Source of the DNA: a virus
IMG/VR virus record: IMGVR_UViG_3300005607_000005
Span: 1-47,516 of that record
Strand: one strand, 5' to 3'
DNA: 47,516 bases
Within the stretch, counting starts at the first letter, position 1. Each line of letters starts with the position of its first letter. The translations under genes were made by a program, and so were the position numbers. The notes beneath the pieces were generated by a model that was not told where the DNA came from, did not search any database, and saw nothing but the letters and a program-made list of their open reading frames with translations. Positions 4,957-43,863 of the stretch are shown here, piece by piece.

Positions 4957-5472
4957 TCACTTGGGCGGTGCATCCGGAAGGACGAGACGCCAATCTTTCT
5001 CGTTGAAGACAGGCGGCGGAACGGGGGGGGTAGGTTGGGGCGGCGCCGGCGCAGGAAGGATAAGCGGTGCGGGTGGCTGACCAGGAAAAGAAGCGGGCCG
5101 CGACAGCCAAGAAATCGCGGCGGCTCCCAGTATCGTCCCGATCAGCAGCATCGCGGCGACCAGGCCCAGCGTCATCAGTTGGCCCACCTGGCAGGAGCCA
5201 GCCGACGCCGGCGCGGCCGCCGGTGCTCCGGCGGGAGTCACGGCCGCTGCCGGCGTCTGGGCCGGCCCAGGTGCAGGCACGGCGGCCGCCGCCGGCTGCG
5301 GCGCCGTCAGGATATTGACAGTCGATCCGGGGAACGTGCTCACGTTAGTCTCCGGGTCGAGGCCCAGGCCCTTGGCGGTTGCCTTGCGCAGCAGAGCCTG
5401 CGTTTCGTTCTGATCATGGGCGTGCAGCGTATAGAGCCAGCTGAGCACCTGATCCTTTAATCCCGGACTCAT
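4957..5472 (-). CDS. Hypothetical membrane protein with a Pro/Ala-rich linker and one TM helix
   Basis: ORF-track frame 4957-5586, trimmed to ATG at 5472 (MSPGLKDQVLSW...) because the upstream gene ends at 5523. TM segment LMTLGLVAAMLLIGTILGAAAISWL. Confidence 0.5.
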   Translation of the reverse strand: MSPGLKDQVLSWLYTLHAHDQNETQALLRKATAKGLGLDPETNVSTFPGSTVNILTAPQPAAAAVPAPGPAQTPAAAVTPAGAPAAAPASAGSCQVGQLMTLGLVAAMLLIGTILGAAAISWLSRPASFPGQPPAPLILPAPAPPQPTPPVPPPVFNEKDWRLVLPDAPPK

Positions 5473-5522
5473 GTCATATCCCCCGAGAATATTCAGCTCG
5501 CGTCGCGCACGGCTGCCGGGGG

Positions 5523-5939
5523 CTACTGAGGGCGAGTTGCTGTGGTTGCCGCCTTGTAGGCATTGACCAGGGCCACCACGAGACACGACAGCAAGGGATT
5601 GGCTTGCAGAATGCCGAGCAGGTTCATCCCATCCGTAGTAACGGTAAAGCCTGGCTGTTGCTGGGCCGCCGGTTGCGGCGTCGTAGGCGTACGAGGTGTC
5701 GGCACGGCAGGGGTTGCTCCAGAGGTTGCGGCCGGGGGCGCCACGGGCGGCGGCGTTTGGGCCATCTGTTGCATGTTCTTGAGCGCTGCGGCGGAAGCCG
5801 CGGCCATCTGGGCTACGGCGTCGTTGGATGCCTTCACAAACGCATCCAGTTGGGTCTGAATGGTGCTCGTGAAGGCATCCAACTCGGCCTGAGACAACCC
5901 AGGAGGGGCTGGGCTGGCCGTGGTGGCGTCGGTCGTCAT
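5523..5939 (-). CDS. Hypothetical protein (helical N-terminus, Pro/Thr-rich middle)
   Basis: 138-aa ORF in the same-strand gene train. Confidence 0.5.
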   Translation of the reverse strand: MTTDATTASPAPPGLSQAELDAFTSTIQTQLDAFVKASNDAVAQMAAASAAALKNMQQMAQTPPPVAPPAATSGATPAVPTPRTPTTPQPAAQQQPGFTVTTDGMNLLGILQANPLLSCLVVALVNAYKAATTATRPQ

Positions 5940-6312: not shown

Positions 6313-7671
6313 TCACTGAGAAGGCGAGCTACCTTGCTGCTTGTTGGGCACCAACGCCAGTTTCAACGTGCCACCCAACTGCACGAACTGGCTCTGCAGG
6401 ATGTTGCCGTGGCAGTCCACGACATCGACCGTGAGGCCCGTGCCGGCCAGGGCCTTTTTCAGAGCCTCCTGGTCGATCGTGACCGAGCCGCCAGCTGACT
6501 GCTTTTGCAGGATCTGCACGGCGGCCACCAGCGCGGTGACCTGGGCCTGGAGCTGGACGATTGCCGTGGTATGGTCCTTGCCATCTTTGCCAGGAGGGCC
6601 GGGCGGGCCGGTGGGGCCGCCAGCCTTTTCCAGGGCTGTGATCCGGGTATGGAGGCTGGCGATCAGGGCATCGAGTCGCTGGGACAGGGCCCCGACCGAG
6701 GCCAGGGCGGCAGCACCATCGGCGCCGTCCTTGCCGGGAGGTCCCGCCGGTCCAGCAGGTCCCGGCTGCCCACGTTCGCCCGGCGACCCCTGCTCGCCCC
6801 GTGGGCCAGCCGGGCCAGCCGGACCTGGCGTTTTCTGAAGCTGCTCGATCTTGAGGTTGAGGCTGGCTTCCAACGTCTGCAGGCGCTGCAGCAAGATCGC
6901 GTATTCCGCCGAGAAACTCCCCGGTGGCACCGTTCCCGGCTGACCTGGCTGGCCACTACCCGGCGGAGCCGCCGGCGGCACATTGGGCTGGGAGGGCTTC
7001 ACCGAGTCCGGAGCGGGAGCCGGTGGCATACTCCCGCCGCCAGGTGGCAGAGCTGGACTCGGTGGGGTGGGACGCGGCGCCTGCGGGCTGGGCTGGCTGG
7101 GCGGACAACTCGGCTGCGTGGATGGCCGCCGTCGGCGTAGCCGGGGTAGGCACACTTCGGCCACAAAGCGGTTGAGCTGGGCCGTGCCTGGCCCAAAAGC
7201 CTGGGCGTGATGGCCATTCTCGTAGCCCGTGATGGCCCCTAGCAAGCGGCCCTGCTCATCAAACCAGCCGCCGCCGGAATCGCCCGAGTACACCTCGGTA
7301 TCCGCATAGAGCCGGCCCTCGCAACGCAACAGCCGGCCGATCAGGATCGACGGCCGCGACGGCGAGCTACGACCCGCGGGATAGCCGATCTTCCAGACGC
7401 GGCTGCCGCGCGGCGGCGGCGCGGCCGCCACGGCCGTCGCCGGCAGGGGACCGTCGGGCTGAAATTCGAGAGCGGACAAATCGGTGTCGGGCTCTTGCGC
7501 CAGGATGGTGCTAGGGAACTTCTTGCCGTTGCGGAAGGTGATGGTCGCCGCGCTGGCGCCCTTGGTCACATGGGCGGCCGTGATGACGACGCCGTAGCCC
7601 TCGCAATAGATATTCGTGCCCGAGCCGCCATAGCGCGTGTTGCAGGCCACATTGACCACACAATCGGCCAC
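6313..7671 (-). CDS. Trypsin-like (S1 family type) serine peptidase domain fused to collagen-like Gly-X-Y repeats and coiled coils
   Basis: 452-aa ORF with a GTG start. His motif VVITAAHV, Asp in PDTDLSALEF, Ser motif YSGDSGGGWFD. Then a Pro-rich linker, 12 Gly-X-Y triplets (GPAGPAGPRGEQGSPGERGQPGPAGPAGPPGKDGADG), a helical segment and 5 more triplets (GPTGPPGPPGKDGKD). Confidence 0.75.
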   Translation of the reverse strand: MADCVVNVACNTRYGGSGTNIYCEGYGVVITAAHVTKGASAATITFRNGKKFPSTILAQEPDTDLSALEFQPDGPLPATAVAAAPPPRGSRVWKIGYPAGRSSPSRPSILIGRLLRCEGRLYADTEVYSGDSGGGWFDEQGRLLGAITGYENGHHAQAFGPGTAQLNRFVAEVCLPRLRRRRPSTQPSCPPSQPSPQAPRPTPPSPALPPGGGSMPPAPAPDSVKPSQPNVPPAAPPGSGQPGQPGTVPPGSFSAEYAILLQRLQTLEASLNLKIEQLQKTPGPAGPAGPRGEQGSPGERGQPGPAGPAGPPGKDGADGAAALASVGALSQRLDALIASLHTRITALEKAGGPTGPPGPPGKDGKDHTTAIVQLQAQVTALVAAVQILQKQSAGGSVTIDQEALKKALAGTGLTVDVVDCHGNILQSQFVQLGGTLKLALVPNKQQGSSPSQ

Positions 7672-8324: not shown

Positions 8325-8927
8325 CTAGTCGCCAAGCAGGCTAATGGAAAACAGCGTGTTGAAATTGATGGCGGTCAGCGATCCGCCCGTATCCTGCAAG
8401 ACGCTCACCTGCACGATCTCGCCAGCAACCAGGCTCAGCATTCCTGAACACTGCTGAATCGTGGCATAGGTGGCGGGCAAAGGTTGCACATAACTGGTTG
8501 GATAAGGCCCAGGATTGATGTTGCTGGAGATGAAAATGCTTCGTCGTCCTGTACCGTTACCATCCCATTCTACCTGAGCGATGAGCAGATATTTCCCGTC
8601 CTGGGGGATGACAATGTTGGCCGAGGGAGCCGTGACAAAGCCCGAGGTATCGAAGGACTGAACAGACCACGTCAGTGGCGTCGAGGAGTTGTTGGGAATG
8701 GACTCATCGCCCGCGTAGTACGAAGCCCCGACGAAGGTGGACGTGTTGCCGCCGGAGGAGATATCGGGAGGTCCTTGCACCAAACCCACCGAGGATTGCA
8801 ACTGAGTGATAGCTCCAACCGGCAAGACGGCTCGTGCATAGGCTGCTTCTTCCTGGAGTCTTCGCAGCTCGCCTAGGCGGAAAGATTTGCCACGAGCGTC
8901 GAGGATGTGGAAGGGTTCGGGGGTCAT
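8325..8927 (-). CDS. Putative receptor-binding / tail fibre tip protein with a C1q/TNF-like C-terminal beta-sandwich
   Basis: 200-aa ORF. The C-terminal pattern DGKYLLIAQVEW...RRSIFISSN...GMLSLVAGEIVQVSVLQ...NTLFSISLLG resembles C1q-type domains. Assignment is by eye only. Confidence 0.45.
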   Translation of the reverse strand: MTPEPFHILDARGKSFRLGELRRLQEEAAYARAVLPVGAITQLQSSVGLVQGPPDISSGGNTSTFVGASYYAGDESIPNNSSTPLTWSVQSFDTSGFVTAPSANIVIPQDGKYLLIAQVEWDGNGTGRRSIFISSNINPGPYPTSYVQPLPATYATIQQCSGMLSLVAGEIVQVSVLQDTGGSLTAINFNTLFSISLLGD

Positions 8928-8999
8928 TTCGCTTGCTTCCTTCGGCCAGGCTGATTACGAGCAAGGAACTTTCATCCCTTTCACCAAGGAGTCCCTGTC

Positions 9000-9566
9000 G
9001 TGGAACGCCCTAACGCCATTGCCCTCGGAGTTCTCGCTATCTGCATCGTCGGTCTGGTCTTCGCTGGAATACTCGGGATGGTCTTCCTGGGCAGCAGCAA
9101 GGCTGAAGGCCGCACGCCGGACCATCCACAGCCGCTGCGACCACTTCCGGCCAAATCTCCTCGCCTTTCCACTCCTGTCGAGTCTGATGAAGACTCATCC
9201 TTCCGACCGTCATGGAAACAGGTGGCCAAGTTGCTAGCGGTCATCGCGGACGTGCTCGCTGCCAGTGCGGTTGCCGTGTGGGTGGCGCGGGACTCTTCCG
9301 ATCGTGGCCACGACGGGGCGCTTTGGGGCTTCGTCTTTTTTCTGCCGCATTCTTTCCTTGCTCTCTGGCCGCTCCTTGCCGGAGTCGCCGGCACGATGCT
9401 TATGACCGATCTCTACTTTCCGCTTCTTTTGTCGGGCTGGCTCACCTTACCTGTTTACCTGTTGTCACGCCGACGAGGGCTTCTGGTATCGTGCGGCACC
9501 TGCCCCAACCGCCACCTCGCCTACGTCCTTGTCTGCCCTCACTGCGGCCGGAAGGCCGATCACTGA
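9000..9566 (+). CDS. Multi-pass membrane protein with a C-terminal zinc ribbon; opposite-strand moron
   Basis: 188-aa ORF. GTG start is preceded by AAGGAG 8 nt upstream. Several hydrophobic helices, C-terminal CGTCPNRHLAYVLVCPHCG. It is the only plus-strand gene inside the minus-strand late region. Confidence 0.65.
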   Translation: MERPNAIALGVLAICIVGLVFAGILGMVFLGSSKAEGRTPDHPQPLRPLPAKSPRLSTPVESDEDSSFRPSWKQVAKLLAVIADVLAASAVAVWVARDSSDRGHDGALWGFVFFLPHSFLALWPLLAGVAGTMLMTDLYFPLLLSGWLTLPVYLLSRRRGLLVSCGTCPNRHLAYVLVCPHCGRKADH

Positions 9567-29461: not shown

Positions 29462-30430
29462 TCAGTTAAATGCCACGGTCTTGCCGTCTTCTTCGATGGG
29501 AGGCCGTGGCATCTTGTCGAAGCCGAGTTGCCCTGGCCGGGGATTGCGGTAGTAGACTGTTCCCGAACGCGCTGCATGATGGGGCCGCGTGTGCTGGTCT
29601 AGCGTGGCGCGCACCTGATAACCGATGACCAGGTCCGGGCCGAGACGTTCATGCGCGGCGAGCTGGCCTTCGCCGGCGACACGGATGGCTTCCGTGCGAG
29701 CAATGCGGCGGGCACTGGAGCGCACGCCATCGACCAGGGGCAAGAGGTCGCGGGCGATCTCGGCCTGGCTCTTGCCGGCGGCGACGCCGGCGGCCAGTAG
29801 GCTAGCCAGAGCCGAGGGCGTGGCCAGGCGGGTGCTGGCCTGGAGGCGCTCGCGCCAGTCGGTGGCGTAGATGATGGAGTGGATGAAGGGCACGTCGAGG
29901 GGCGGAAAGAGCAGTTCCAGAATCTCCTCGCGCTCCTCACCTTCCGCTTCGATCACAGCGACTTTGAGATAGCCCTTGGGAAGGACCTTGCGAACGCCTG
30001 CTTTGGCCGAGTGGTAGGCGAAGAGCGTGATACGCTCCAGCGTGTGGCTAATCTCGCGCTGCAGGTCCAGCAGCATCGCGCCGAACAAGGTAAGCGAAGA
30101 GGACCAGAGCGCCGGCGTTGAGTAACCCAGTCGCGTGCGCTCGAGGGCCTTGCGCAGAGCCCGCCGCAAGACACGGTCCATAGCCAGAGCAGCCGCATCC
30201 GCCCGCAGGACGACATCGACTTGTCGGGCCGAGGCCTTGGCTGCCAGTAGCGAATTGACGTGCGTTGCCACAATGAATACCTTTGTAGGAACGACCCGGC
30301 CTACGACTGGCCTGCGGTCCAGGCGGCCGGGCCGCGTATTAGGGCGGCGCAGCCCGCCGCCGCTTTTCTTCACTCTTCTAGATTCTCCCACTGCCACCCC
30401 AACAGCAGCCAATGCCAGAAGCGCCACCAA
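29462..30430 (-). CDS. Minor head protein, Mu F / SPP1 gp7-like
   Basis: 322-aa ORF. ARRIARTEAIRVAGEGQL...VRATLDQHTRPHHAARSGTVY matches the Mu-F signature. Directly downstream of the portal. Confidence 0.75.
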   Translation of the reverse strand: MVALLALAAVGVAVGESRRVKKSGGGLRRPNTRPGRLDRRPVVGRVVPTKVFIVATHVNSLLAAKASARQVDVVLRADAAALAMDRVLRRALRKALERTRLGYSTPALWSSSLTLFGAMLLDLQREISHTLERITLFAYHSAKAGVRKVLPKGYLKVAVIEAEGEEREEILELLFPPLDVPFIHSIIYATDWRERLQASTRLATPSALASLLAAGVAAGKSQAEIARDLLPLVDGVRSSARRIARTEAIRVAGEGQLAAHERLGPDLVIGYQVRATLDQHTRPHHAARSGTVYYRNPRPGQLGFDKMPRPPIEEDGKTVAFN

Positions 30431-35808: not shown

Positions 35809-36026
35809 GTCGGTTGCTCCTCCATGACGGTAGCCTTGATACGCTTGCCACAAAGGCCGCACTTGCCGAGGGAGGAGGTCTCGTCGGGCGGGTAGAGGTA
35901 CAGGGGCGAGCTACCGTCGAGCAGAGCGGCGTAATTTTCGGCCCAAACACGACCCAGATCCTGGGACAGCTTGAGCTGCTGCGTGTGGCCGTTTTGGCAA
36001 ATGATGTCAATGACGTACATCATCAT
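35805..36026 (-). CDS. Hypothetical small protein
   Basis: ATG triplet run at 36020-36026 overlapping the Gp37/Gp68 stop (ATGA): MMMYVIDIICQNGHTQQL...CGLCGKRI. Confidence 0.45.
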   Translation of the reverse strand: MMMYVIDIICQNGHTQQLKLSQDLGRVWAENYAALLDGSSPLYLYPPDETSSLGKCGLCGKRIKATVMEEQPT

Positions 36027-36973
36027 TTCTCCTTGGGAAACTCTCGTATTTGCAGATCCTGCGGCCATTCCGCTGGATTACCGCCCTTGGGGTCGCGGAG
36101 GCGGTAGGTGGCGCCGAGGGCCTTGGCGATGAAATCGTGACTGAGTCCTTTGGAGTCGGTGAAGCCGGTGATGTTGGCCCCGAGCTGCTTTACGAAACAG
36201 GCCACGCCGGCGGCTTTGCACTGCTCGACCAGCGACCGCACCCAGGTCAGATCGCAGGGCCTAGCATCAGGTCCGCTCTCGCCGCCAATAATGCACCAAT
36301 CGAGGTGGCAAGCACACTCCCCATGATCCGCTTCGTGGTCCCTACCACGGTAGCCATCGTGGTAGCATCCTCCCCATCGGGAGATGTCCAGCTCTACAGG
36401 GGCAATCAAGGGCTCGCAACTGAGGAACCGCACCGCCGCCGGCGTCTGGAGCAGTAGTGGAATCCTCTCGTCTGCCCGGGCCTGGTCCTCGACGGAGACG
36501 CCGAGCCAGACGTTGGGAGCGGGCTGGAACTCCGCACCGCCGAATCGCCCCCAGCGCTTCGAGCAATATGCGTGTAGGCGGTCGGCCCGCTTGGTCAGCA
36601 CCTGGAACTGGTGCTGCGGGCTTTTCCACATCGCCCGGAACACGTCATCAATGTCGTCGTCCGAAACCCAAGCGCCGAAGAGGTCCGTCATCGAACAGAC
36701 GAACACCCGGCGCGGCTTCTTCCAGTGCAAGGGCTGTTTCAGCACCTGTTTGTCCAGGAACAGCTCCAGGTCTTGCCGCCGCCCTTCCCGACCGACCGGG
36801 CCGCCGTAGGAGGGCAGCCCGAAGCGCCGCTGCAACGCCGAGGCGTAACAGTGGGCGCAGCCAGGGGAAACCATCTCGCAGTAGTGGCCTACCTTGCCGG
36901 TCTGGCGGTGGCGCGCCCGGAGCGGGTTCCACGTCTCATCCGTCCATTCGATCTTCGTAGCGGCCATGGTCAC
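36023..36973 (-). CDS. Phage Gp37/Gp68 family protein (DUF5131)
   Basis: 316-aa ORF. TKIEWTDETWNPLRA...VSPGCAHCYA is the family-defining N-terminus. Confidence 0.8.
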   Translation of the reverse strand: MTMAATKIEWTDETWNPLRARHRQTGKVGHYCEMVSPGCAHCYASALQRRFGLPSYGGPVGREGRRQDLELFLDKQVLKQPLHWKKPRRVFVCSMTDLFGAWVSDDDIDDVFRAMWKSPQHQFQVLTKRADRLHAYCSKRWGRFGGAEFQPAPNVWLGVSVEDQARADERIPLLLQTPAAVRFLSCEPLIAPVELDISRWGGCYHDGYRGRDHEADHGECACHLDWCIIGGESGPDARPCDLTWVRSLVEQCKAAGVACFVKQLGANITGFTDSKGLSHDFIAKALGATYRLRDPKGGNPAEWPQDLQIREFPKEK

Positions 36974-37551: not shown

Positions 37552-38427
37552 CTATTCACACAACCCATATTTGCTCACGCAGGTGTGAGCCTCCGCTTCG
37601 ATGAACGGCAGGCTGTATTGCTGGCCACCCCGCTCCGTCTTCGACCAGGCCACGACTTCATCAATCCAATTGATGTCCTTGCCCGGCACCATCGGCGCAA
37701 AAAATGTGCGGCCGACCGACTGCTCCCAGCGTCGCACCTTGTCGATCATCTCGGGGAAACGGGCCACCCAATTGCGGATGTCGGCCTTACTGGAGTTGAT
37801 GCACGGCGCGCAGCCGACCCGGTTAAAACCCAACTTGTAGAGAGGATTGATTTCCTCGCCGGCGGCCAGGACGTAATCGAAACATTGCTGCTTGGTCCAA
37901 CGGAAGAGGGGCCGATAGAGCATGCAGTGGAAGTAGCGATCGAATTCCTGCTCCGGACAGCTGGCGCGATTTCGGGACTCGTCGGCACGGACGCCGATGT
38001 AGCGAGCATAGCGAATCCCCTTGGCGGTCAGATGCTCATCTAGCCAGCGCTTTTGCGGCGCCAGCTTCAGGTACTCCGTGCAGAATTGGGCCTTTCGTGA
38101 AGGGAATCTTCCCTTCACGAAAGCGAGTTTGTCGAAGGTCAGCGGCTCCTCTTCGCCCAACGTGAGCCGTCGCTCGCGCGTGGCGCCTTCGTGTGTGCCC
38201 ACGTTGCCCAGATCCTTGACCAGGGCGCGGACGGTGATCACGGGAAAGACGTGAGCGGAGTACCAGCGGACGAAGCCCTCAGTCAGCGGATGCTCGTTAC
38301 CGCCCGCGTCGCTGTTGAGGAGAAGGATGTCCTCCGGCGGGAAGGTTTGGCGTGCCCACAGCGCGACGGCCTGACTGTCGATGCCGCCGGAAAAGCCCAC
38401 GACGATTTTCTTGTCAAGCATTTCCAT
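37552..38427 (-). CDS. Phosphoadenosine phosphosulfate (PAPS) reductase family / PP-loop ATPase
   Basis: 291-aa ORF. PP-loop KIVVGFSGGIDS, then IGVRADESRNRA and YRPLFRWTKQQCFDYV, all typical of the PAPS_reduct family. Confidence 0.8.
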   Translation of the reverse strand: MEMLDKKIVVGFSGGIDSQAVALWARQTFPPEDILLLNSDAGGNEHPLTEGFVRWYSAHVFPVITVRALVKDLGNVGTHEGATRERRLTLGEEEPLTFDKLAFVKGRFPSRKAQFCTEYLKLAPQKRWLDEHLTAKGIRYARYIGVRADESRNRASCPEQEFDRYFHCMLYRPLFRWTKQQCFDYVLAAGEEINPLYKLGFNRVGCAPCINSSKADIRNWVARFPEMIDKVRRWEQSVGRTFFAPMVPGKDINWIDEVVAWSKTERGGQQYSLPFIEAEAHTCVSKYGLCE

Positions 38428-38686: not shown

Positions 38687-39321
38687 CGCAGCAACCTCCG
38701 ATCTGGCCCGGTCAGCTCCAGCACGGTGCCGGCTGCCAGGCGACTCGTTAGCCGGTCGTCATAAAGGCCCGCTAGCACGTCGAGACTCAAATTCGACCCA
38801 ACGACCAGGGGACGGCCCGATCGTTCGTCTACGACGCGATAAACGCATTCGTAGGCATGATCGCTGACTCGTTGGCGTGCGCCGAGTTCATCCAGGACGA
38901 CCAAGGTCGTGCGGGCGATTTCCTCCCAGAGGGACGCAGCGGATACGCGGAGTTTGCTATCTGGGTTGTAGAGTTCACCCTTGTAGGCCAGGAGGATTTT
39001 GCCGGCCAGGCCGGCGGCGGTGAAGTACAGGCCGCCGGCGTGGTCGAGCAGGCACAGGGCCGCACACGTCTTGCCCGTGCCCGGCTTGCCAATGAGGACC
39101 AACGGCCAGGGCAAGCTGCCATCCACGCAATCACGAATTACCCGGCCGAGGTGGTTCTCCACTAGCGCCACTTCCCGGGGCTTGTCCTTCAGCCAGTGGC
39201 GTTGGGCCTGGGATCTGAGTGTCAGGACCTTCCGGCCCGATGCGGATGGCGACGTTGGCATACTTGCCAGGCGGCGCTTCGACTCTGCCAGGACGAGGTC
39301 CCAGATCTTGGCTCCGTCCAT
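38683..39321 (-). CDS. DnaC/IstB-like AAA+ helicase loader
   Basis: 212-aa ORF. Walker A LIGKPGTGKT, Walker B LVVLDELG. Follows the replication initiator. Confidence 0.75.
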   Translation of the reverse strand: MDGAKIWDLVLAESKRRLASMPTSPSASGRKVLTLRSQAQRHWLKDKPREVALVENHLGRVIRDCVDGSLPWPLVLIGKPGTGKTCAALCLLDHAGGLYFTAAGLAGKILLAYKGELYNPDSKLRVSAASLWEEIARTTLVVLDELGARQRVSDHAYECVYRVVDERSGRPLVVGSNLSLDVLAGLYDDRLTSRLAAGTVLELTGPDRRLLR

Positions 39322-40156
39322 GCACGGCCTCCATCAAATCGTCTTCCCAGCGCTGGCCTCGCAGCCAGGTGGCTGGATTGGGAATGAAACGTCCCCCCTC
39401 CCGTGTCCATTGGTCGCTATGACGCTGCTTCTCCACAGCCGCCAGGATGCGCTCGAGTAGCTCCGCATTCGGGTTGAGTTTGAGCCAGGCATCGGCGGCA
39501 GCCCGCTTGGCGACCTTCCTGGGGTAAGCATCCCAAAAGCGGAGAAAGCCTGCGTCTTCGGTTGGTCGTTGTTTGCGTCGGGAACCTACGGAGGGTGTAT
39601 TTGTATTCTCTTCTTTCCTTTCCTTTCCTTTAGAGCGGATTTCAGCGTGACAGGGCTGTGACATGTCACGCTCACTGTCACAGGGCTTGTCACGCTGTTG
39701 TCCCATGCCTTTCTGTCGCTGGCGCTGTTTACGGATTGCATCGCGCCGCCTCCGCAGGTCTTCATTGGGGACGTTGTTGCGAAAGAACTTAGGGAAAACG
39801 ACTCTGCCATCGTCAGTCTCCTTCGCCCAGCCGACTTTCTCCATCGCCTCGCCAAAGCACGGCACTTCGGCCAGCACGTCGAGGCTGCCGAGGCCGGCGC
39901 AGTCGAGCACGAGGTCATATCCGGAGGCGTATCCCTGCTCGCGCGCCACGCCCCAGACTTGCAGCAGTCCCGCAATTGTCACGCTGAGTGTCACGCTCGT
40001 GTCCACATGCTCATAGGCGGTCTTCGAACAGGTGCGTTGTACGGGATCGGTGAGCCAATTCATAAAGCTACGGCAGCCCGCGAGATAGTCAGCCAGTGCA
40101 ATGACGCGCGGGTCGCGGCGCAGCCAGACGCGCATAGGTATCCAGTCACCAGCCAT
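39131..40156 (-). CDS. Replication initiation-type protein
   Basis: ORF frame 39131-40255, trimmed to ATG at 40156 because upstream codons run into CRISPR repeat 1. FLRFWDAYPRKVAKRAAADAWLKL...GRFIPNPATWLRGQRWEDD is a pattern seen in prophage replication proteins. The 3' 191 nt overlap the DnaC-like gene. Confidence 0.6.
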   Translation of the reverse strand: MAGDWIPMRVWLRRDPRVIALADYLAGCRSFMNWLTDPVQRTCSKTAYEHVDTSVTLSVTIAGLLQVWGVAREQGYASGYDLVLDCAGLGSLDVLAEVPCFGEAMEKVGWAKETDDGRVVFPKFFRNNVPNEDLRRRRDAIRKQRQRQKGMGQQRDKPCDSERDMSQPCHAEIRSKGKERKEENTNTPSVGSRRKQRPTEDAGFLRFWDAYPRKVAKRAAADAWLKLNPNAELLERILAAVEKQRHSDQWTREGGRFIPNPATWLRGQRWEDDLMEAVHGRSQDLGPRPGRVEAPPGKYANVAIRIGPEGPDTQIPGPTPLAEGQAPGSGASGEPPRPGNS

Positions 40157-40194
40157 CCGTGGCCTCCCTGGCTTTGCTGGGCTTTTTCTCCGCA

Positions 40195-40754
40195 GCCGCA
40201 TCACCCTGTTGGTCCCAACCAGTGATCCTGGATCAGGCCATACCTGATGGCTCAAGGAGACACACGATGCCGCATCACCCTGTTGGTCCCAACCAGTGAT
40301 CCTGGGCTCGGGGGTTATCCGAGCACGGCGGCGTTAGCTGAGGCCGCATCACCCTGTTGGTCCCAACCAGTGATCCTGGACAACTGGCGCGAGCCAAGCA
40401 GGGCCGCCGCCATAAGGCCGCATCACCCTGTTGGTCCCAACCAGTGATCCTGGTCCCACGAAGGCGGATGAGCAGACAAAAGTTCAAGTGGCCGCATCAC
40501 CCTGTTGGTCCCAACCAGTGATCCTGGTCTCCATAAGGGCGATCGCTGGCGGCTCCTTGGTCCTGCCGCATCACCCTGTTGGTCCCAACCAGTGATCCTG
40601 GTACGGAAGCCCTGTTGCGTGAGGAGCGCGATTCCAGACGCCGCATCACCCTGTTGGTCCCAACCAGTGATCCTGGGCGGGTCCGCCCCAGTCTTCGTGC
40701 GGGCCGGAATGCACCTTGCCGCATCACCCTGTTGGTCCCAACCAGTGATCCTGG
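40195..40754. CRISPR. CRISPR array: 8 identical 37-nt repeats (gccgcatcaccctgttggtcccaaccagtgatcctgg) and 7 spacers
   Basis: Repeats at 40195-40231, 40269-40305, 40343-40379, 40417-40453, 40491-40527, 40565-40601, 40640-40676 and 40718-40754. Spacer lengths are 37, 37, 37, 37, 37, 38 and 41 nt, all different. The repeat holds an imperfect palindrome (ATCAC..CTG.TTG / CAA.CAG..GTGAT). Confidence 0.95.
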
Positions 40755-40965
40755 GGCCGTGGCCATAAGGCCCAATATCCCAGGCATTTCCAGCGGCCTC
40801 CGCGAGCGGTGCCTGGCGGCAAGCGCCAGGGCCGTGATTCGCGCTTAGCGTGGCGGTCGCTAATGTTTGTCGCCATTGCCTTTATTCCTTGCGAGCGGCC
40901 TCTATTGTCCCGATGGGGCGCAAAAACTGAAGTCGAACACCTTTGGCGCGTTGGGATAGTCTGAA
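40755..40965 (-). other. 211-nt non-coding spacer between the TnpB/Cas12-like gene and the array; candidate leader or tracrRNA/scaffold region
   Basis: No credible ORF. Less GC-rich than its surroundings by eye. Contains cacctttggcgcgttggga (40938-40956), which is related to the repeat core caccctgttggtcccaacc. Confidence 0.3.
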
Positions 40966-42018
40966 TCAATTGTGAGCATTCGGGTCCTCGTCTCCTCCAC
41001 CAAAAGTAATCCCCAGTCCCTGGAGCTTATAAGCCAACAGCCGCCGCAGTTCGGACCAGGGAAACAGGGGTAGCCAACTCTTGTCGTGATCGGTGTAGAT
41101 CACCCTGGCCACTTTTTGTCGCTCCGCCAGGCCGACCAGCTGGGCGGTCAGCTGGTGCAGTGAGGTATGGATACGGCGTTGGTGCTTCTGACAGCGCTCC
41201 TGCCGCTTCTCTCGAATGTGCCGCAGTTTGCCCGGAGGTAGACGCAACTCATACTTACTGTCCTCAGCGATACGCTGCAGGTAGGCGCGATGGCTGATGC
41301 AGAGGCGCCGTAGGTCATCGTGGTTCCAGTAGCGCGGCTCCTGCCCCTCGATCTCGACGACCCATAGGCAGGTCGAAGAGGTGAGCACTCTCATAAGCCT
41401 GGTACGCTCCGACAAGAGGGGCGGTGGAAAGCGACCCACCAGGCCAACCAGCAGGGCGTTACCCCGTCGGTAGATTTTGGCTTCACTCTTGAGGGCGGCA
41501 CCTTCCACGAATTGGCGGAAGAGTGCCACCTGGCGGGCGAAGTTCGGGCCGCCCTTGAGTCGGAGCTGCCAGCGCTTCTCGGCACCGCGTCCCAGTGGCA
41601 GGCTCACCAGGGGCCGGTTGCCCTGATCCCAAGAAGGGCGCCAAGCCTGGTTATGGACCGGATAGGGCGTCGGATAGCGATACGTCGGCAGGCTGGCCGC
41701 ATGTTGCCAGAGGACTTGATAAAGGACTGCTTTGTACTTGCGCTTCACCGCGCGTTCCAGCGAGGCACAGGTGCGCGTGTCGAGATCGGGGAAGAGTTGG
41801 GTCAGCTTTGGGTAAAAGTACGTCGCCGGCATGGGTGGTAGTTTGGCATCACCGGGCAGCCGCTGGTGATCAGCCTTGGCCAACTCGGTCATCAGCCAGT
41901 TGCTGGCTGCCGTAGTCTGGGCCCAGCAAGCATGCAAATCGCGCCAAAGTGCTTCCCAGGAACCCTCCACGGGGGAAGCGACAGAGAGAGTTGTGCAGCG
42001 AACTATCGAGTCACTCAT
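40966..42018 (-). CDS. Compact TnpB/Cas12-like protein, apparently RuvC-inactive and C-terminally truncated; candidate CRISPR-associated RNA-guided DNA-binding protein
   Basis: 350-aa ORF. Its ATG overlaps the recT stop (ATGA at 42015-42018). Helix KRQERCQKHQRRIHTSLHQLTAQLVGLAERQKV, then VARVIYTDHD, then FPWSELRRLLAYKLQGLGITF, parallels the TnpB layout (helix, IVIEDL strand, L.YK...G). The Glu position holds Thr, the GIDLG-equivalent strand reads RVLTSS, and the protein ends before any CxxC zinc finger or RuvC-III segment. Confidence 0.5.
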   Translation of the reverse strand: MSDSIVRCTTLSVASPVEGSWEALWRDLHACWAQTTAASNWLMTELAKADHQRLPGDAKLPPMPATYFYPKLTQLFPDLDTRTCASLERAVKRKYKAVLYQVLWQHAASLPTYRYPTPYPVHNQAWRPSWDQGNRPLVSLPLGRGAEKRWQLRLKGGPNFARQVALFRQFVEGAALKSEAKIYRRGNALLVGLVGRFPPPLLSERTRLMRVLTSSTCLWVVEIEGQEPRYWNHDDLRRLCISHRAYLQRIAEDSKYELRLPPGKLRHIREKRQERCQKHQRRIHTSLHQLTAQLVGLAERQKVARVIYTDHDKSWLPLFPWSELRRLLAYKLQGLGITFGGGDEDPNAHN

Positions 42019-42983
42019 GACTGGGGCTCCTCCATCGTCTCCGATTTACCACCTAGATCCTCCAGGTGACTGATGAGCTCCTCGGCCCGCTCTGCCATCA
42101 GTTCCTCAGGCCGCTCCGCCCCATACTGTTCGACCAGGGCCTGGAACTCATCGGGTTGCAGGATCTGCGAGAGTAGCTGCAATTCTTGCAGCTGTTGCTG
42201 CGTGACGCGGCCCTCGGCGTTGACGGCATCCTGGCCCAGCCACTTTGGATCAAAGGGTAGTCCTTGTGGCAGTCCTTCCTCCGCCAACTCATCGAGGTTG
42301 GCAGCGCGGCCCAGGTCCGCGGTCAGCGGCACGCGCTTGGCCAGGCGGCGCACGGCCGTCTTGCAGCCCATCGCTTCCACATGCGTCCACCAGGGCGAAT
42401 TCTTTTTGCGACCATCCGGCAGCGTGCCATAGCGAGCCTGGCAGGCCAGCACTTCCTCCCAACCGAGGACCTCGAAGTCAAAGCCGCCATTGGCCAGGCT
42501 CACCGAGGCATAGACGGCGATCGGCTCGCCGCGGCCCTTCAGCGCCGGCGCGAAGTCGAGATAGGGCTTGGAGCCATGGCAGAATTTGAAGTGGTCGCCG
42601 GCATGGACGCAGTGGGCCGGAAAGGCCTTGACCTGGCCCGAACGAAAAGCCAGCGACCGGAAGCCCTTGTAGCCGATGATAAGCTGAGCCTCCAGCCGCC
42701 GCGTCTTGCCGTTGCGGTAGGGCACCAGGTAGGCATGCCCCAGCACGTCGTCCAGCTCCAGGCCGAGCTGGCAGGCCTGCATCAAGCAGGCGATGAGGCT
42801 GACCTGGGTGCAATCGGCCAGCTGCGGATTCTTGCGGCAGGCCGTCAGCGCCAGCCGTATCATGCGGTCTGGCGTCAGGCTGCGCGCCAGTTGCCGCGGG
42901 ATGGCCCGGCCGAACTCGTCGGCCTTGGCCAGCAGGAACTTTTCCAGCGTCTGCACGGGGTCAGTTCGCACGGTGACGGACAT
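42015..42983 (-). CDS. recT: RecT-family single-strand annealing protein
   Basis: 322-aa ORF. AYLVPYRNGKTRRLEAQLIIGYKGFRSLAFRSGQVKAF is typical of RecT. Follows a YqaJ-type exonuclease. Confidence 0.85.
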   Translation of the reverse strand: MSVTVRTDPVQTLEKFLLAKADEFGRAIPRQLARSLTPDRMIRLALTACRKNPQLADCTQVSLIACLMQACQLGLELDDVLGHAYLVPYRNGKTRRLEAQLIIGYKGFRSLAFRSGQVKAFPAHCVHAGDHFKFCHGSKPYLDFAPALKGRGEPIAVYASVSLANGGFDFEVLGWEEVLACQARYGTLPDGRKKNSPWWTHVEAMGCKTAVRRLAKRVPLTADLGRAANLDELAEEGLPQGLPFDPKWLGQDAVNAEGRVTQQQLQELQLLSQILQPDEFQALVEQYGAERPEELMAERAEELISHLEDLGGKSETMEEPQS

Positions 42984-43863
42984 GGTCTTTCTCCTTGGTT
43001 AGAATCCTCATGTCGTAGTAGGTCGTCTCCGGAACGCGGTATTCGCGCCGGGTAATCTGGCGCCGGCGAATGTATCTCCCATCTTTGAGATGGCCTTCGC
43101 AGGCGTGGCCCATCTTCTCGATGAGCTGGGCCTTGAGCGTTTGCCGCTGCAGCTCGAGCGCCGCGATGTCGAGGCCCAGCTGTTGGTAGGCATCCACGAG
43201 CTTTTCGCCCTGTTCGTCCAGCCAAACGACTTGCCCTGGCTGGGGATGGTAGAGCAGCTGCAGCAACTCCAGATTGCTGGACTCCCAGCCGATGGTGTCC
43301 TTGCGCTGGACCTTTTCCCAGAACCACTTGAGCTGCTCCTCCAGGGCCGCGCAGAAATGCGGCAGGTAGTTCACCGAGTACACGCGGAACTCGCTGCCGC
43401 CGATGAGCACGGCGACATCGGCTCGCTCGTCGAGCCCATGCGCCCGGCCGACGTGAAGCTGGTGCTGCACCTGGACGGCGTAATGCTCGGGAATCTCATC
43501 GGTGCCCGGCCGGCCCCAGCCCTCGCCGGTGCGGGAGTTCTTCAGCTCAACGATGCGCTGGCCGGCGACGACGCGGTCTAGACTGGCGAACATCCACGGC
43601 GCTTGCGGATGCCAGAGGATGGCCGCCGGCGGCGCCTCGGCCTGCAGTCCGGTCTCCTCGGTGTAGGCCGCCGCGATGGTTTCCTCGAGCTTGAGGCCCC
43701 AGCGCAGGGCCGCGCTGTCGCGTGCCGGCAGCAGGCCCCACTTATCTAGGGCGACTTCCAGCGCGGTCTTGTAGGGGTCCAGCCCGAGCACTGCGGCCGC
43801 CTCCGAGCTGCCCAGGCCCGCCTTGCGTTCGGCCAGCCAGCTTTGCCGTTCCGTCGCCTTCAT
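42961..43863 (-). CDS. YqaJ-like / lambda Exo-type recombination exonuclease
   Basis: 300-aa ORF. RQSWLAERKAGLGSSEAAAVLGLDPYKTALEV plus later D/E/K-type motifs (ASLDRVV...IVELKNS). Confidence 0.8.
   Translation of the reverse strand: MKATERQSWLAERKAGLGSSEAAAVLGLDPYKTALEVALDKWGLLPARDSAALRWGLKLEETIAAAYTEETGLQAEAPPAAILWHPQAPWMFASLDRVVAGQRIVELKNSRTGEGWGRPGTDEIPEHYAVQVQHQLHVGRAHGLDERADVAVLIGGSEFRVYSVNYLPHFCAALEEQLKWFWEKVQRKDTIGWESSNLELLQLLYHPQPGQVVWLDEQGEKLVDAYQQLGLDIAALELQRQTLKAQLIEKMGHACEGHLKDGRYIRRRQITRREYRVPETTYYDMRILTKEKDHVRHRAN

Follow-up and report, generated by a model that had tools for sequence, protein, structure and literature searches.

What purpose could a temperate phage have for a small protein of 350 amino acids (aa), encoded beside a CRISPR array, that appears to have lost the means of cutting DNA? 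The question is raised by the virus record IMGVR_UViG_3300005607_000005 of IMG/VR, whose 47,516 nucleotides (nt) were analyzed as a whole and are called the window here; unless a locus is named, coordinates are those of the window, and the module of gene, RNA element and array is read on its minus strand (Table 1). A reading of the sequence alone had proposed that the open reading frame (ORF) next to the array encodes a truncated, nuclease-dead relative of TnpB and Cas12. Our analyses indicate that the protein is very probably a nuclease-dead RNA-guided DNA binder of Cas12f type, working together with a scaffold RNA and the array. As a whole, the locus is best explained as a phage-borne, binding-only module derived from type V-F that would silence other mobile elements, a view we hold with moderate confidence.

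The ORF is real, opens with ATG and contains every motif quoted by the sequence-only reading. Searches of Pfam, with OrfB_IS605 and OrfB_Zn_ribbon included, NCBIfam and PHROGs returned no match for the protein, and a single-sequence phmmer search of the Protein Data Bank (PDB) gave a chance match to OppA only. The TnpB/Cas12-type layout proposed earlier became visible with profile hidden Markov models and with structure. Cas12f models of PADLOC match the N-terminal part of the window protein (1.6e-5) and 18 of 20 homologues (best E 3.8e-15). The 21 homologues obtained in an initial search (227-501 aa) are all without Pfam domains, and those few that have a name are called ‘hypothetical’. When the family profile was compared with the PDB, it matched Cas12f (9nzq, 1.2e-10) and an entry named ‘Nuclease-deactivated Cas12f’ (9n9c, 365 aa, 8.3e-9), the latter from end to end (residues 9-363 of 365).

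Structure prediction places the protein in the same group. A model built by AlphaFold2 from the family alignment (mean predicted local distance difference test, pLDDT, 88.3) was compared with the PDB by Foldseek, and the top matches were OsCas12f, AsCas12f, SpCas12f1 and naturally nuclease-dead Cas12f (dCas12f), with E values of 4.7e-17 to 9e-15; for 9nzs, 8j12 and 8dzj, E was about 5e-17 to 1e-16 and TMq about 0.6. TnpB matched more weakly (E about 1e-9), and Cas12g, Cas12o and Cas12m more weakly still (Cas12m chains 8hhm and 8pm4: E 8e-7 to 1e-5, TMt 0.21-0.32). Identity to the solved dCas12f (9n9c/9n9m) is about 14-15% in the Foldseek alignments. Among viral models, the best matches were an unnamed 467-aa protein (3.5e-17) and phage ‘transposases’ of TnpB-like type.

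The active site of this fold is not preserved. In the profile alignment, the RuvC-I aspartate of Cas12f (‘gvDmG’) falls on the family's ‘tvRt’, which is Leu212 in the window protein, and the RuvC-II glutamate (‘mED’) falls on the first aspartate of the family's ‘YDD’, which is Thr309 here. The protein then ends 11 residues past the last RuvC strand (GLGITF, residues 334-339) and lacks RuvC-III, leaving the D-E-D triad broken at all three positions. Non-acidic catalytic positions and a stop ahead of the zinc finger and RuvC-III had both been predicted from the sequence, and mapping onto Cas12f bears them out. Among 77 sampled family members, 51 have R or K at the RuvC-I position, where D and E are outside the six commonest residues, and 61 have D at the RuvC-II position. 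Past the last RuvC strand there follows a tail of 19 residues in the median, with a CxxC in 0/77, so the TNB zinc finger and RuvC-III are missing family-wide and not just in the window. An N-terminal CxxC...CxxCW zinc ribbon is found in 60 of the 77 members but not in the window protein, and the most conserved stretch of the family is LPTYRYPTP. The proposal that the protein is smaller than its known relatives did not hold, as the solved dCas12f has 365 aa and the difference is not meaningful.

A protein with this site might still act through cleavage, either because a rearranged center (D253, D309/D310) cuts or because the complex recruits the YqaJ exonuclease, RecT or GIY-YIG protein encoded nearby. 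Rearranged RuvC sites do occur in TnpB clades (PMC10691335), both aspartates of ‘YDD’ are conserved (61/77 and 63/77), and D253 is nearly invariant in the family. Against cutting stand the threonine and leucine of the window protein at RuvC-II and RuvC-I and the family-wide absence of RuvC-III and TNB; with the evidence on self-targeting and on gene neighborhoods given below, we consider this explanation very unlikely.

A structured RNA lies between the gene and the array. Using exact-protein look-ups, IMG/VR, GTDB genomes and JGI metagenomes, we collected about 65 loci that encode relatives, and found an element of about 116 nt conserved in its nucleotides across loci whose proteins share just 35-58% identity. 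The distance from the stop codon to repeat 1, scaffold included, is 113-123 nt in eight relatives and 211 nt in the window; at longer gaps, the conserved part is the final ~115 nt before repeat 1. The element lies beyond the stop codon, with no overlap between RNA and gene. It forms a first hairpin with the loop ACCGNCA and a second with the loop GCTTGCC, contains the conserved stretch CGCTCGCG, and its ‘NNCGGG’ pairs with the first 5-6 nt of repeat 1 in a helix that encloses a third hairpin. RNAalifold shows compensatory changes in 20 of 23 pairs. The named scaffold structure has 88% of cells paired vs 65% in shuffles, and its covariation score of 0.653 compares with 0.206 in shuffles, 0/500 of which reach it, and with 0.06-0.14 for slid partners. 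One extra helix (columns 23-27 with 62-66) was left out of the model, as it is paired in only 73% and its register slips. Folded as a whole, the intergenic region is no better than shuffles (z = +0.5).

A covariance model of the element, R1, was trained on 12 loci. It scores the window element at 107 bits and also detects the element in loci outside the training set, with matches at E<1e-3 in 24/27, 30/37 and 2/2 sources, about 56 loci in total. Every one of these matches is on the gene strand; except for one in L023, they lie downstream of the gene, nearly always close to it. Misses are mostly contig ends; L021, a 26%-identical relative with ample downstream DNA, gives a weak match only (E 0.25). 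No known RNA family of Rfam was found in 39900-41100. Taken together, element, repeat hairpin and spacer are sized and arranged like a Cas12f single-guide RNA, and we read the ~116-nt RNA as a putative guide scaffold. In L056, two scaffold-plus-array units with the same repeat (5370-5810 and 8762-9055) lie 3.4 kb apart, each array being headed by a scaffold. In L007 (7049-7381), more than 10 copies of the 12-mer GGAAGCTGCGGG, irregularly spaced at 22-86 nt, occupy the stretch between gene and scaffold; the same 12-mer is the 3′ end of the L007 repeat.

The array itself consists of eight identical 37-nt repeats, spaced at 74-78 nt, and seven unique spacers of 37-41 nt. On the gene strand, the repeat reads CCAGGATCACTGGTTGGGACCAACAGGGUGAUGCGGC and forms an end-to-end hairpin, which folds better on this strand (-12.8 vs -7.5 kcal/mol on the other) because of G-U pairs. 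Arrays downstream of the gene and on its strand are present in at least 14 of the 16 IMG/VR loci with enough sequence; more were found in metagenome loci, giving about 30 loci overall. In the IMG/VR loci the repeats are 36-37 nt long and the spacers 28-40 nt, mostly 35-37. Repeat sequences vary by locus, yet all 12 examined fold end to end and are closed by 5′-CCNG...CNGG-3′. The closest relative (L065, whose protein is 68% identical) has a closely related repeat, and the window repeat has no match in the metagenome contigs, the window contig evidently not being among these collections.

The array could instead be an orphan phage mini-array that uses an effector of the host and is functionally unrelated to the adjoining ORF. 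Mini-arrays of phages that depend on Cas proteins of the host are known (PMC11656645), and no cas1 or cas2 was seen among the window ORFs scanned. This explanation is extremely improbable in view of the Cas12f fold of the protein and of a constant arrangement, in which the gene comes first and is followed by the scaffold RNA and then by an array or a repeat with a fixed guide, all on one strand, in ~60 loci, dozens of them with unrelated flanks. The array is thus real and linked to the gene, as the sequence-only reading had supposed.

The spacers of these arrays change quickly. L001-L004, contigs from four samples, encode identical proteins and agree in their flanks to at least 99.5%, yet they carry four different first spacers beside the scaffold (Table 1), which points to fast spacer turnover in nature. 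No adaptation genes are found among the called genes of these four loci. When 64, and later 84, unique spacers were compared by BLAST with all fetched loci and the window, one real match was obtained: spacer 5 of L012 (2471-2509) is identical at 39/39 positions to codons 14-26 of a DNA methyltransferase ORF of the same phage, 2.7 kb away (5245-5283, on the same contig as L064), with CGGCAAGA as its 5′ flank on the spacer-sense strand. As a perfect self-target would be suicidal for a nuclease, its toleration in this phage argues against cleavage. Other candidate matches were discarded. A very permissive ungapped spacer scan produced pure noise, a 17-nt match between L020 and the window is due to chance (20/37 overall, no seed), and two 12-13-nt matches of window spacers at 29848-29940 fit chance by their mid-spacer position.

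The same self-target may be read in another way. In an alternative that we regard as rather unlikely, the protein would be an RNA-guided transcription factor whose guides tune genes of the phage or its host, either repressing them in the manner of TldR or recruiting RNA polymerase in the manner of dCas12f with sigmaE, and the array would be a store of regulatory guides. The perfect match of L012 to its own methyltransferase gene favors it, as does the published role of dCas12f and TldR as regulators (PMC13472631, PMC10705468). A further point in its favor comes from the window, where the first 16 nt of spacer 5 (40380-40416), CTTATGGCGGCGGCCC, match the 3′ end of the phage's own scaffold, CTTATGGCCACGGCCC (40755-40770), at 14/16 positions; the repeat end before spacer 5 also resembles the scaffold sequence upstream of that match. 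This resemblance could reflect autoregulation, or be a trace of the origin of the scaffold from a repeat-spacer unit. Elsewhere in the 47.5-kb phage, the window spacers match nowhere, even as 14-16 nt seeds with 1-2 mismatches. This speaks against regulation of the phage's own genes and makes competing phages and mobile elements, possibly also host genes, the likeliest targets. Spacer turnover among near-identical phages is likewise unlike fixed regulatory guides, and no sigma factor gene adjoins the Cas12f-like gene among the scanned neighbors, nor was one found among the Pfam-annotated neighbors in relatives.

Regulation is the better fit for another part of the family, which has a single guide and no array. 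In three metagenome-assembled genomes of Acidobacteriota (Vicinamibacteraceae, Luteitalea and one unclassified; L024:1186-1345, L025:11145-11302, L026:11107-11255), gene and scaffold are followed by one repeat-like hairpin and then by an identical 13-nt sequence, ACGCAGCAGTGGA. The L025 locus is chromosomal and lies among PadR and three MacB-type permease genes; no convincing target of the fixed guide was found within the 21 kb of L025. This locus looks like a candidate fixed-guide regulator. Further single-guide groups also have guides in common, TGA[AT]ATGCGAACCAAGTGCTTA in L035, L043, L045 and L057, and TATTGGATYACCTC in L053 and L059, which suggests conserved regulatory targets and adds to the case for a transcription factor. 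Array-bearing versions on phages and fixed-guide versions on chromosomes thus occur within one family, in parallel to the published dCas12f of Bacteroidota.

These chromosomal members also bear on the possibility that the module is a decoy, in which a dead effector, its array or both soak up parts of a type V system of the host (CRISPR RNA (crRNA), trans-activating crRNA (tracrRNA) or Cas1-Cas2) or compete for its targets, acting as an anti-CRISPR. Inactivated Cas9 variants of phages have been proposed as anti-CRISPRs (PMC12669027), solitary repeats of phages inhibit host CRISPR (PMC11656645), and none of the phage genes scanned belongs to an adaptation module. Array-less chromosomal members beside PadR and permease genes do not fit such a role. 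Moreover, the protein co-evolves with its own scaffold and repeat in ~60 very divergent loci, and the spacers are diverse and unique, which indicates a self-contained guide-effector pair and not a mimic of one host system. We therefore judge a decoy function highly improbable.

The explanation we favor, a binding-only module directed at other mobile elements, would work as follows. The locus would be a CRISPR module derived from type V-F without an adaptation module, its three parts forming one transcription unit on the minus strand. The 350-aa protein, predicted to retain WED, REC and a partial RuvC scaffold and to be unable to cut DNA, would bind the 116-nt RNA, which would be the guide scaffold of the first repeat-spacer unit in cis and, probably, of the remaining units in trans, through the 5-6 bp helix that joins it to each repeat's 5′ end. 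The array would contribute hairpin repeats, and the spacers the 3′ guides. The ribonucleoprotein would then bind complementary double-stranded DNA, form an R-loop and stay there, so that transcription or replication of the target is blocked. The outcome may be superinfection exclusion or conflict between mobile elements, exerted from the prophage or during infection. By analogy, the binding-only precedents Cas12m, Cas12c, TldR and dCas12f would lend support to this explanation. For the window phage, silencing of competing mobile elements is the most likely role and gene regulation the second; the former is a tentative assignment that falls just short of an even balance.

Several observations weigh against this explanation. 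No protospacer for any of the seven window spacers is present within the window; the concatenated spacers have no match in 50,697 records of cultured phages, and six of them (all but spacer 5), searched as 22-mers, have none in IMG/VR. As the only protospacer of the study sits in the relative L012, a protospacer- or target-adjacent motif is not derivable. Energies of scaffold-repeat duplexes from RNAduplex are no better than those of shuffled repeats, and there is no long anti-repeat that would account for the loading of spacers 2 to 7; some type V subtypes process their precursor crRNA without a tracrRNA (PMC12669027). Cas1, Cas2 and Cas4, which would account for new spacers, were not seen among the window ORFs scanned (the neighbors and 20 other ORFs). 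Finally, about a third of the family loci are array-less, with a scaffold, one repeat-like hairpin and a short sequence common to several loci, and a single fixed guide fits regulation better than immunity.

The surroundings of the module are those of a temperate tailed phage, as the window also encodes an integrase, small and large terminase subunits, portal, Mu-F-like and capsid proteins, and Cro/CI-type helix-turn-helix (HTH) proteins. The ATG of the 350-aa ORF overlaps the RecT stop codon as ATGA, indicating translational coupling with RecT. The JGI gene call (P0001) has 308 aa and starts 42 residues later; the 350-aa start is the better call because residues 5-42 are conserved in homologues. 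The coupling to RecT and the proximity of the YqaJ and GIY-YIG genes would suit recruitment of a nuclease. However, this neighborhood is not conserved, and neighbors differ in all relatives checked, the 68%-identical one included, for which reason RNA-guided recombination with RecT/YqaJ was also rejected as a feature of the family. On the other side of the array lie a replication initiator and a gene for a DnaC-like loader; synteny with the downstream initiator recurs in L012. The mechanical TTG start of the initiator ORF falls inside the last repeat-spacer unit of the array. Since the ORF matches its PHROG from residue 125 onward, the true start is probably internal and the overlap an artefact of ORF calling. 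Among the neighbors scanned there was no family of the Tn7-like tnsB/tnsC/tniQ context of Cas12k and CRISPR-associated transposons, and no tRNA was found in the window. A few kb downstream of the replication genes, the window carries genes for a PAPS-reductase-family protein (37552-38427) and a DUF5131 protein (36023-36973), both on the minus strand. A 452-aa ORF (6313-7671, minus strand) combines a trypsin-like peptidase domain with collagen triple-helix repeats, and we take it for a putative tail-fibre or structural protein.

Table 1 Positions of the module, its neighboring genes and the loci that show spacer turnover
Feature	Position	Strand	Remarks
Cas12f-like gene, 350 aa	40966..42018	-	ATG ORF; nuclease-dead, C-terminally truncated; WED-REC-partial RuvC, without TNB zinc finger or RuvC-III
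Gap from stop codon to scaffold, ~100 nt	40864..40965	-	Unconserved across loci
Structured RNA element, ~116 nt	40748..40863	-	Candidate guide scaffold, tracrRNA-like; abuts repeat 1
CRISPR array, 8 repeats + 7 spacers	40195..40754	-	Repeat 1 = 40718-40754; repeat 8 = 40195-40231
RecT gene	42015..42983	-	Pfam RecT 8e-39; context only
YqaJ-type exonuclease gene	42961..43863		Upstream of RecT; GIY-YIG gene also upstream
Replication-initiator ORF	39131..40255	-	PHROG 9474, 1.2e-38; downstream of array; context only
Spacer-turnover loci	L001:7622-7803, L002:5511-5676, L003:3737-3921, L004:2734-2828		Spacer beside scaffold differs in each

How does the module compare with systems already described? 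The nearest is dCas12f, which together with sigmaE drives RNA-guided transcription (Hoffmann et al., Nature 2026, PMC13472631; PDB 9n9c, 9n9m). Both have the Cas12f fold, a similar length (~350-430 aa in the family vs 365 aa), a C-terminal truncation that removes RuvC-III and a mutated RuvC; in both, a structured guide scaffold, putative in the window family, lies beside the gene and carries the guide at its 3′ end, some members are array-adjacent, and a covarying intergenic RNA is found upstream of the array. They differ in their partners and hosts. The dCas12f of Bacteroidota is associated with an extracytoplasmic function sigma factor (rpoE with a C-terminal domain) and/or an HTH gene, whereas the window gene neighbors RecT and a replication initiator, with neither rpoE nor an HTH gene adjoining it, and its family resides on temperate phages and, chromosomally, in Acidobacteriota. 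The window family mostly carries an N-terminal zinc ribbon and has multi-spacer arrays with turnover. In dCas12f a single chimeric guide (scaffold plus a 14-16 nt 3′ guide) is used and the array is lost or vestigial in most members, whereas the window has a full seven-spacer array and its array-less relatives a guide of ~13 nt. A distinct dCas12f cluster has also been reported that is located near CRISPR arrays, has covarying RNAs as putative guides upstream of them and may act as a repressor (PMC13472631); the window family may fall within that cluster or next to it. A branch of Cas12f has been inferred to lose its activity together with RuvC-III before the array shrank (Altae-Tran et al., PNAS 2023, PMC10691335).

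Cas12f1 of type V-F1 (V-U3), represented by AsCas12f, OsCas12f, SpCas12f1 and Un1Cas12f1, offers the best structure and profile matches, and is likewise miniature, with a CRISPR array and a long structured RNA partner. It has an intact D-E-D triad and a TNB zinc finger, both absent from the window protein, and its tracrRNA has a clear anti-repeat, in place of which the window element shows a helix of 5-6 bp with the 5′ end of the repeat; many type V-F loci contain cas1/cas2/cas4, none of which was seen among the window ORFs scanned. Cas12m (V-M) and Cas12c, which interfere without cutting, share the way in which the module probably acts, namely by blocking transcription or replication through RNA-guided binding to DNA, and are carried on mobile elements for inter-element conflict (PMC11013384, PMC11656645, 10.1101/2021.12.06.471469); Cas12m is common on plasmids and also present on some prophages (PMC11656645). 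Cas12m belongs to a different branch, and its solved chains that were matched have 516-604 aa with an inactivated yet complete RuvC and a TNB domain, unlike the truncated 350-aa protein of the window. TldR (Wiegand et al., PMC10705468), a miniature repressor with a dead RuvC that uses a scaffold RNA and a fixed guide of short length, is similar to the family's array-less members; it descends directly from TnpB, uses omega-RNAs, is tied to fliC or oppF loci and has no CRISPR arrays, while the window family is nearer to Cas12f than to TnpB. TnpB itself, in IS200-IS605 elements, differs in its transposon context with tnpA and transposon ends, in an omega-RNA that overlaps the 3′ end of the gene and in its active RuvC, whereas the neighbors in the window are phage genes.

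The type V effectors known from phages, Cas12j/CasPhi, Cas-lambda and Cas12r, are about twice the size of the window protein and, unlike it, are active nucleases. They resemble the module in being phage-borne single effectors with their own array and no adaptation genes, as in Cas12r of Thermus phages, and a role in inter-element conflict has been proposed for them (10.64898/2026.04.20.719267). The sequence-only reading had stated that no such combination had been described, which was too strong. Naturally nuclease-dead, C-terminally truncated Cas12f is published, an array-adjacent cluster included (PMC13472631, PMC10691335), as are the binding-only Cas12m and Cas12c on mobile elements (PMC11656645, PMC11013384). 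Because dead array-linked Cas12f, Cas12m/Cas12c and the phage type V systems are published precedents, the general idea is not new. In the literature searched, we did not find descriptions of this family on temperate phages and in Acidobacteriota, of its N-terminal zinc ribbon, of its scaffold RNA or of its spacer turnover.

The family is large. An exhaustive profile search recovered 1447 clusters at 50% identity (E<=1e-3), of which 742 remain at E<=1e-30, mostly of 390-430 aa; a tblastn search of the window protein against INPHARED phage records found no homologue. Members are carried by temperate phages, with chromosomal members in Acidobacteriota. A bolder view, which we put forward as speculative and doubt more than we believe, is that the smallest natural CRISPR effectors form here a very large lineage of their own (at least 742 clusters at 50% identity), which arose independently of the dCas12f of Bacteroidota and was spread by temperate phages that infect Acidobacteriota and other bacteria of the soil. 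Such a lineage would be a never-cutting adaptive system that gains spacers without its own cas1/cas2, in which one scaffold per array serves all crRNAs in trans via the 5-6 bp handle, and which has repeatedly been fixed into single-guide chromosomal regulators at PadR and MacB-permease loci. If this were true, the family would represent a new weapon of phages against phages and a ready-made programmable DNA-binding module of 350 aa.

Our findings place naturally nuclease-dead Cas12f on temperate phages and in Acidobacteriota, and show that the dead state is ancient and widespread, across hundreds of clusters that have no Pfam annotation and are ‘hypothetical’ where named. The module is compact, widespread and unannotated, and its class of mechanism has precedents; its three parts, the 350-aa protein, the 116-nt scaffold RNA and the array of hairpin repeats, make it a directly testable, very compact candidate for a programmable DNA binder. 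As one family holds both arrays with turnover and fixed single guides, it offers a good place to study how a CRISPR effector turns into an RNA-guided regulator, and is also suited to studying how arrays without nearby adaptation genes gain their spacers.

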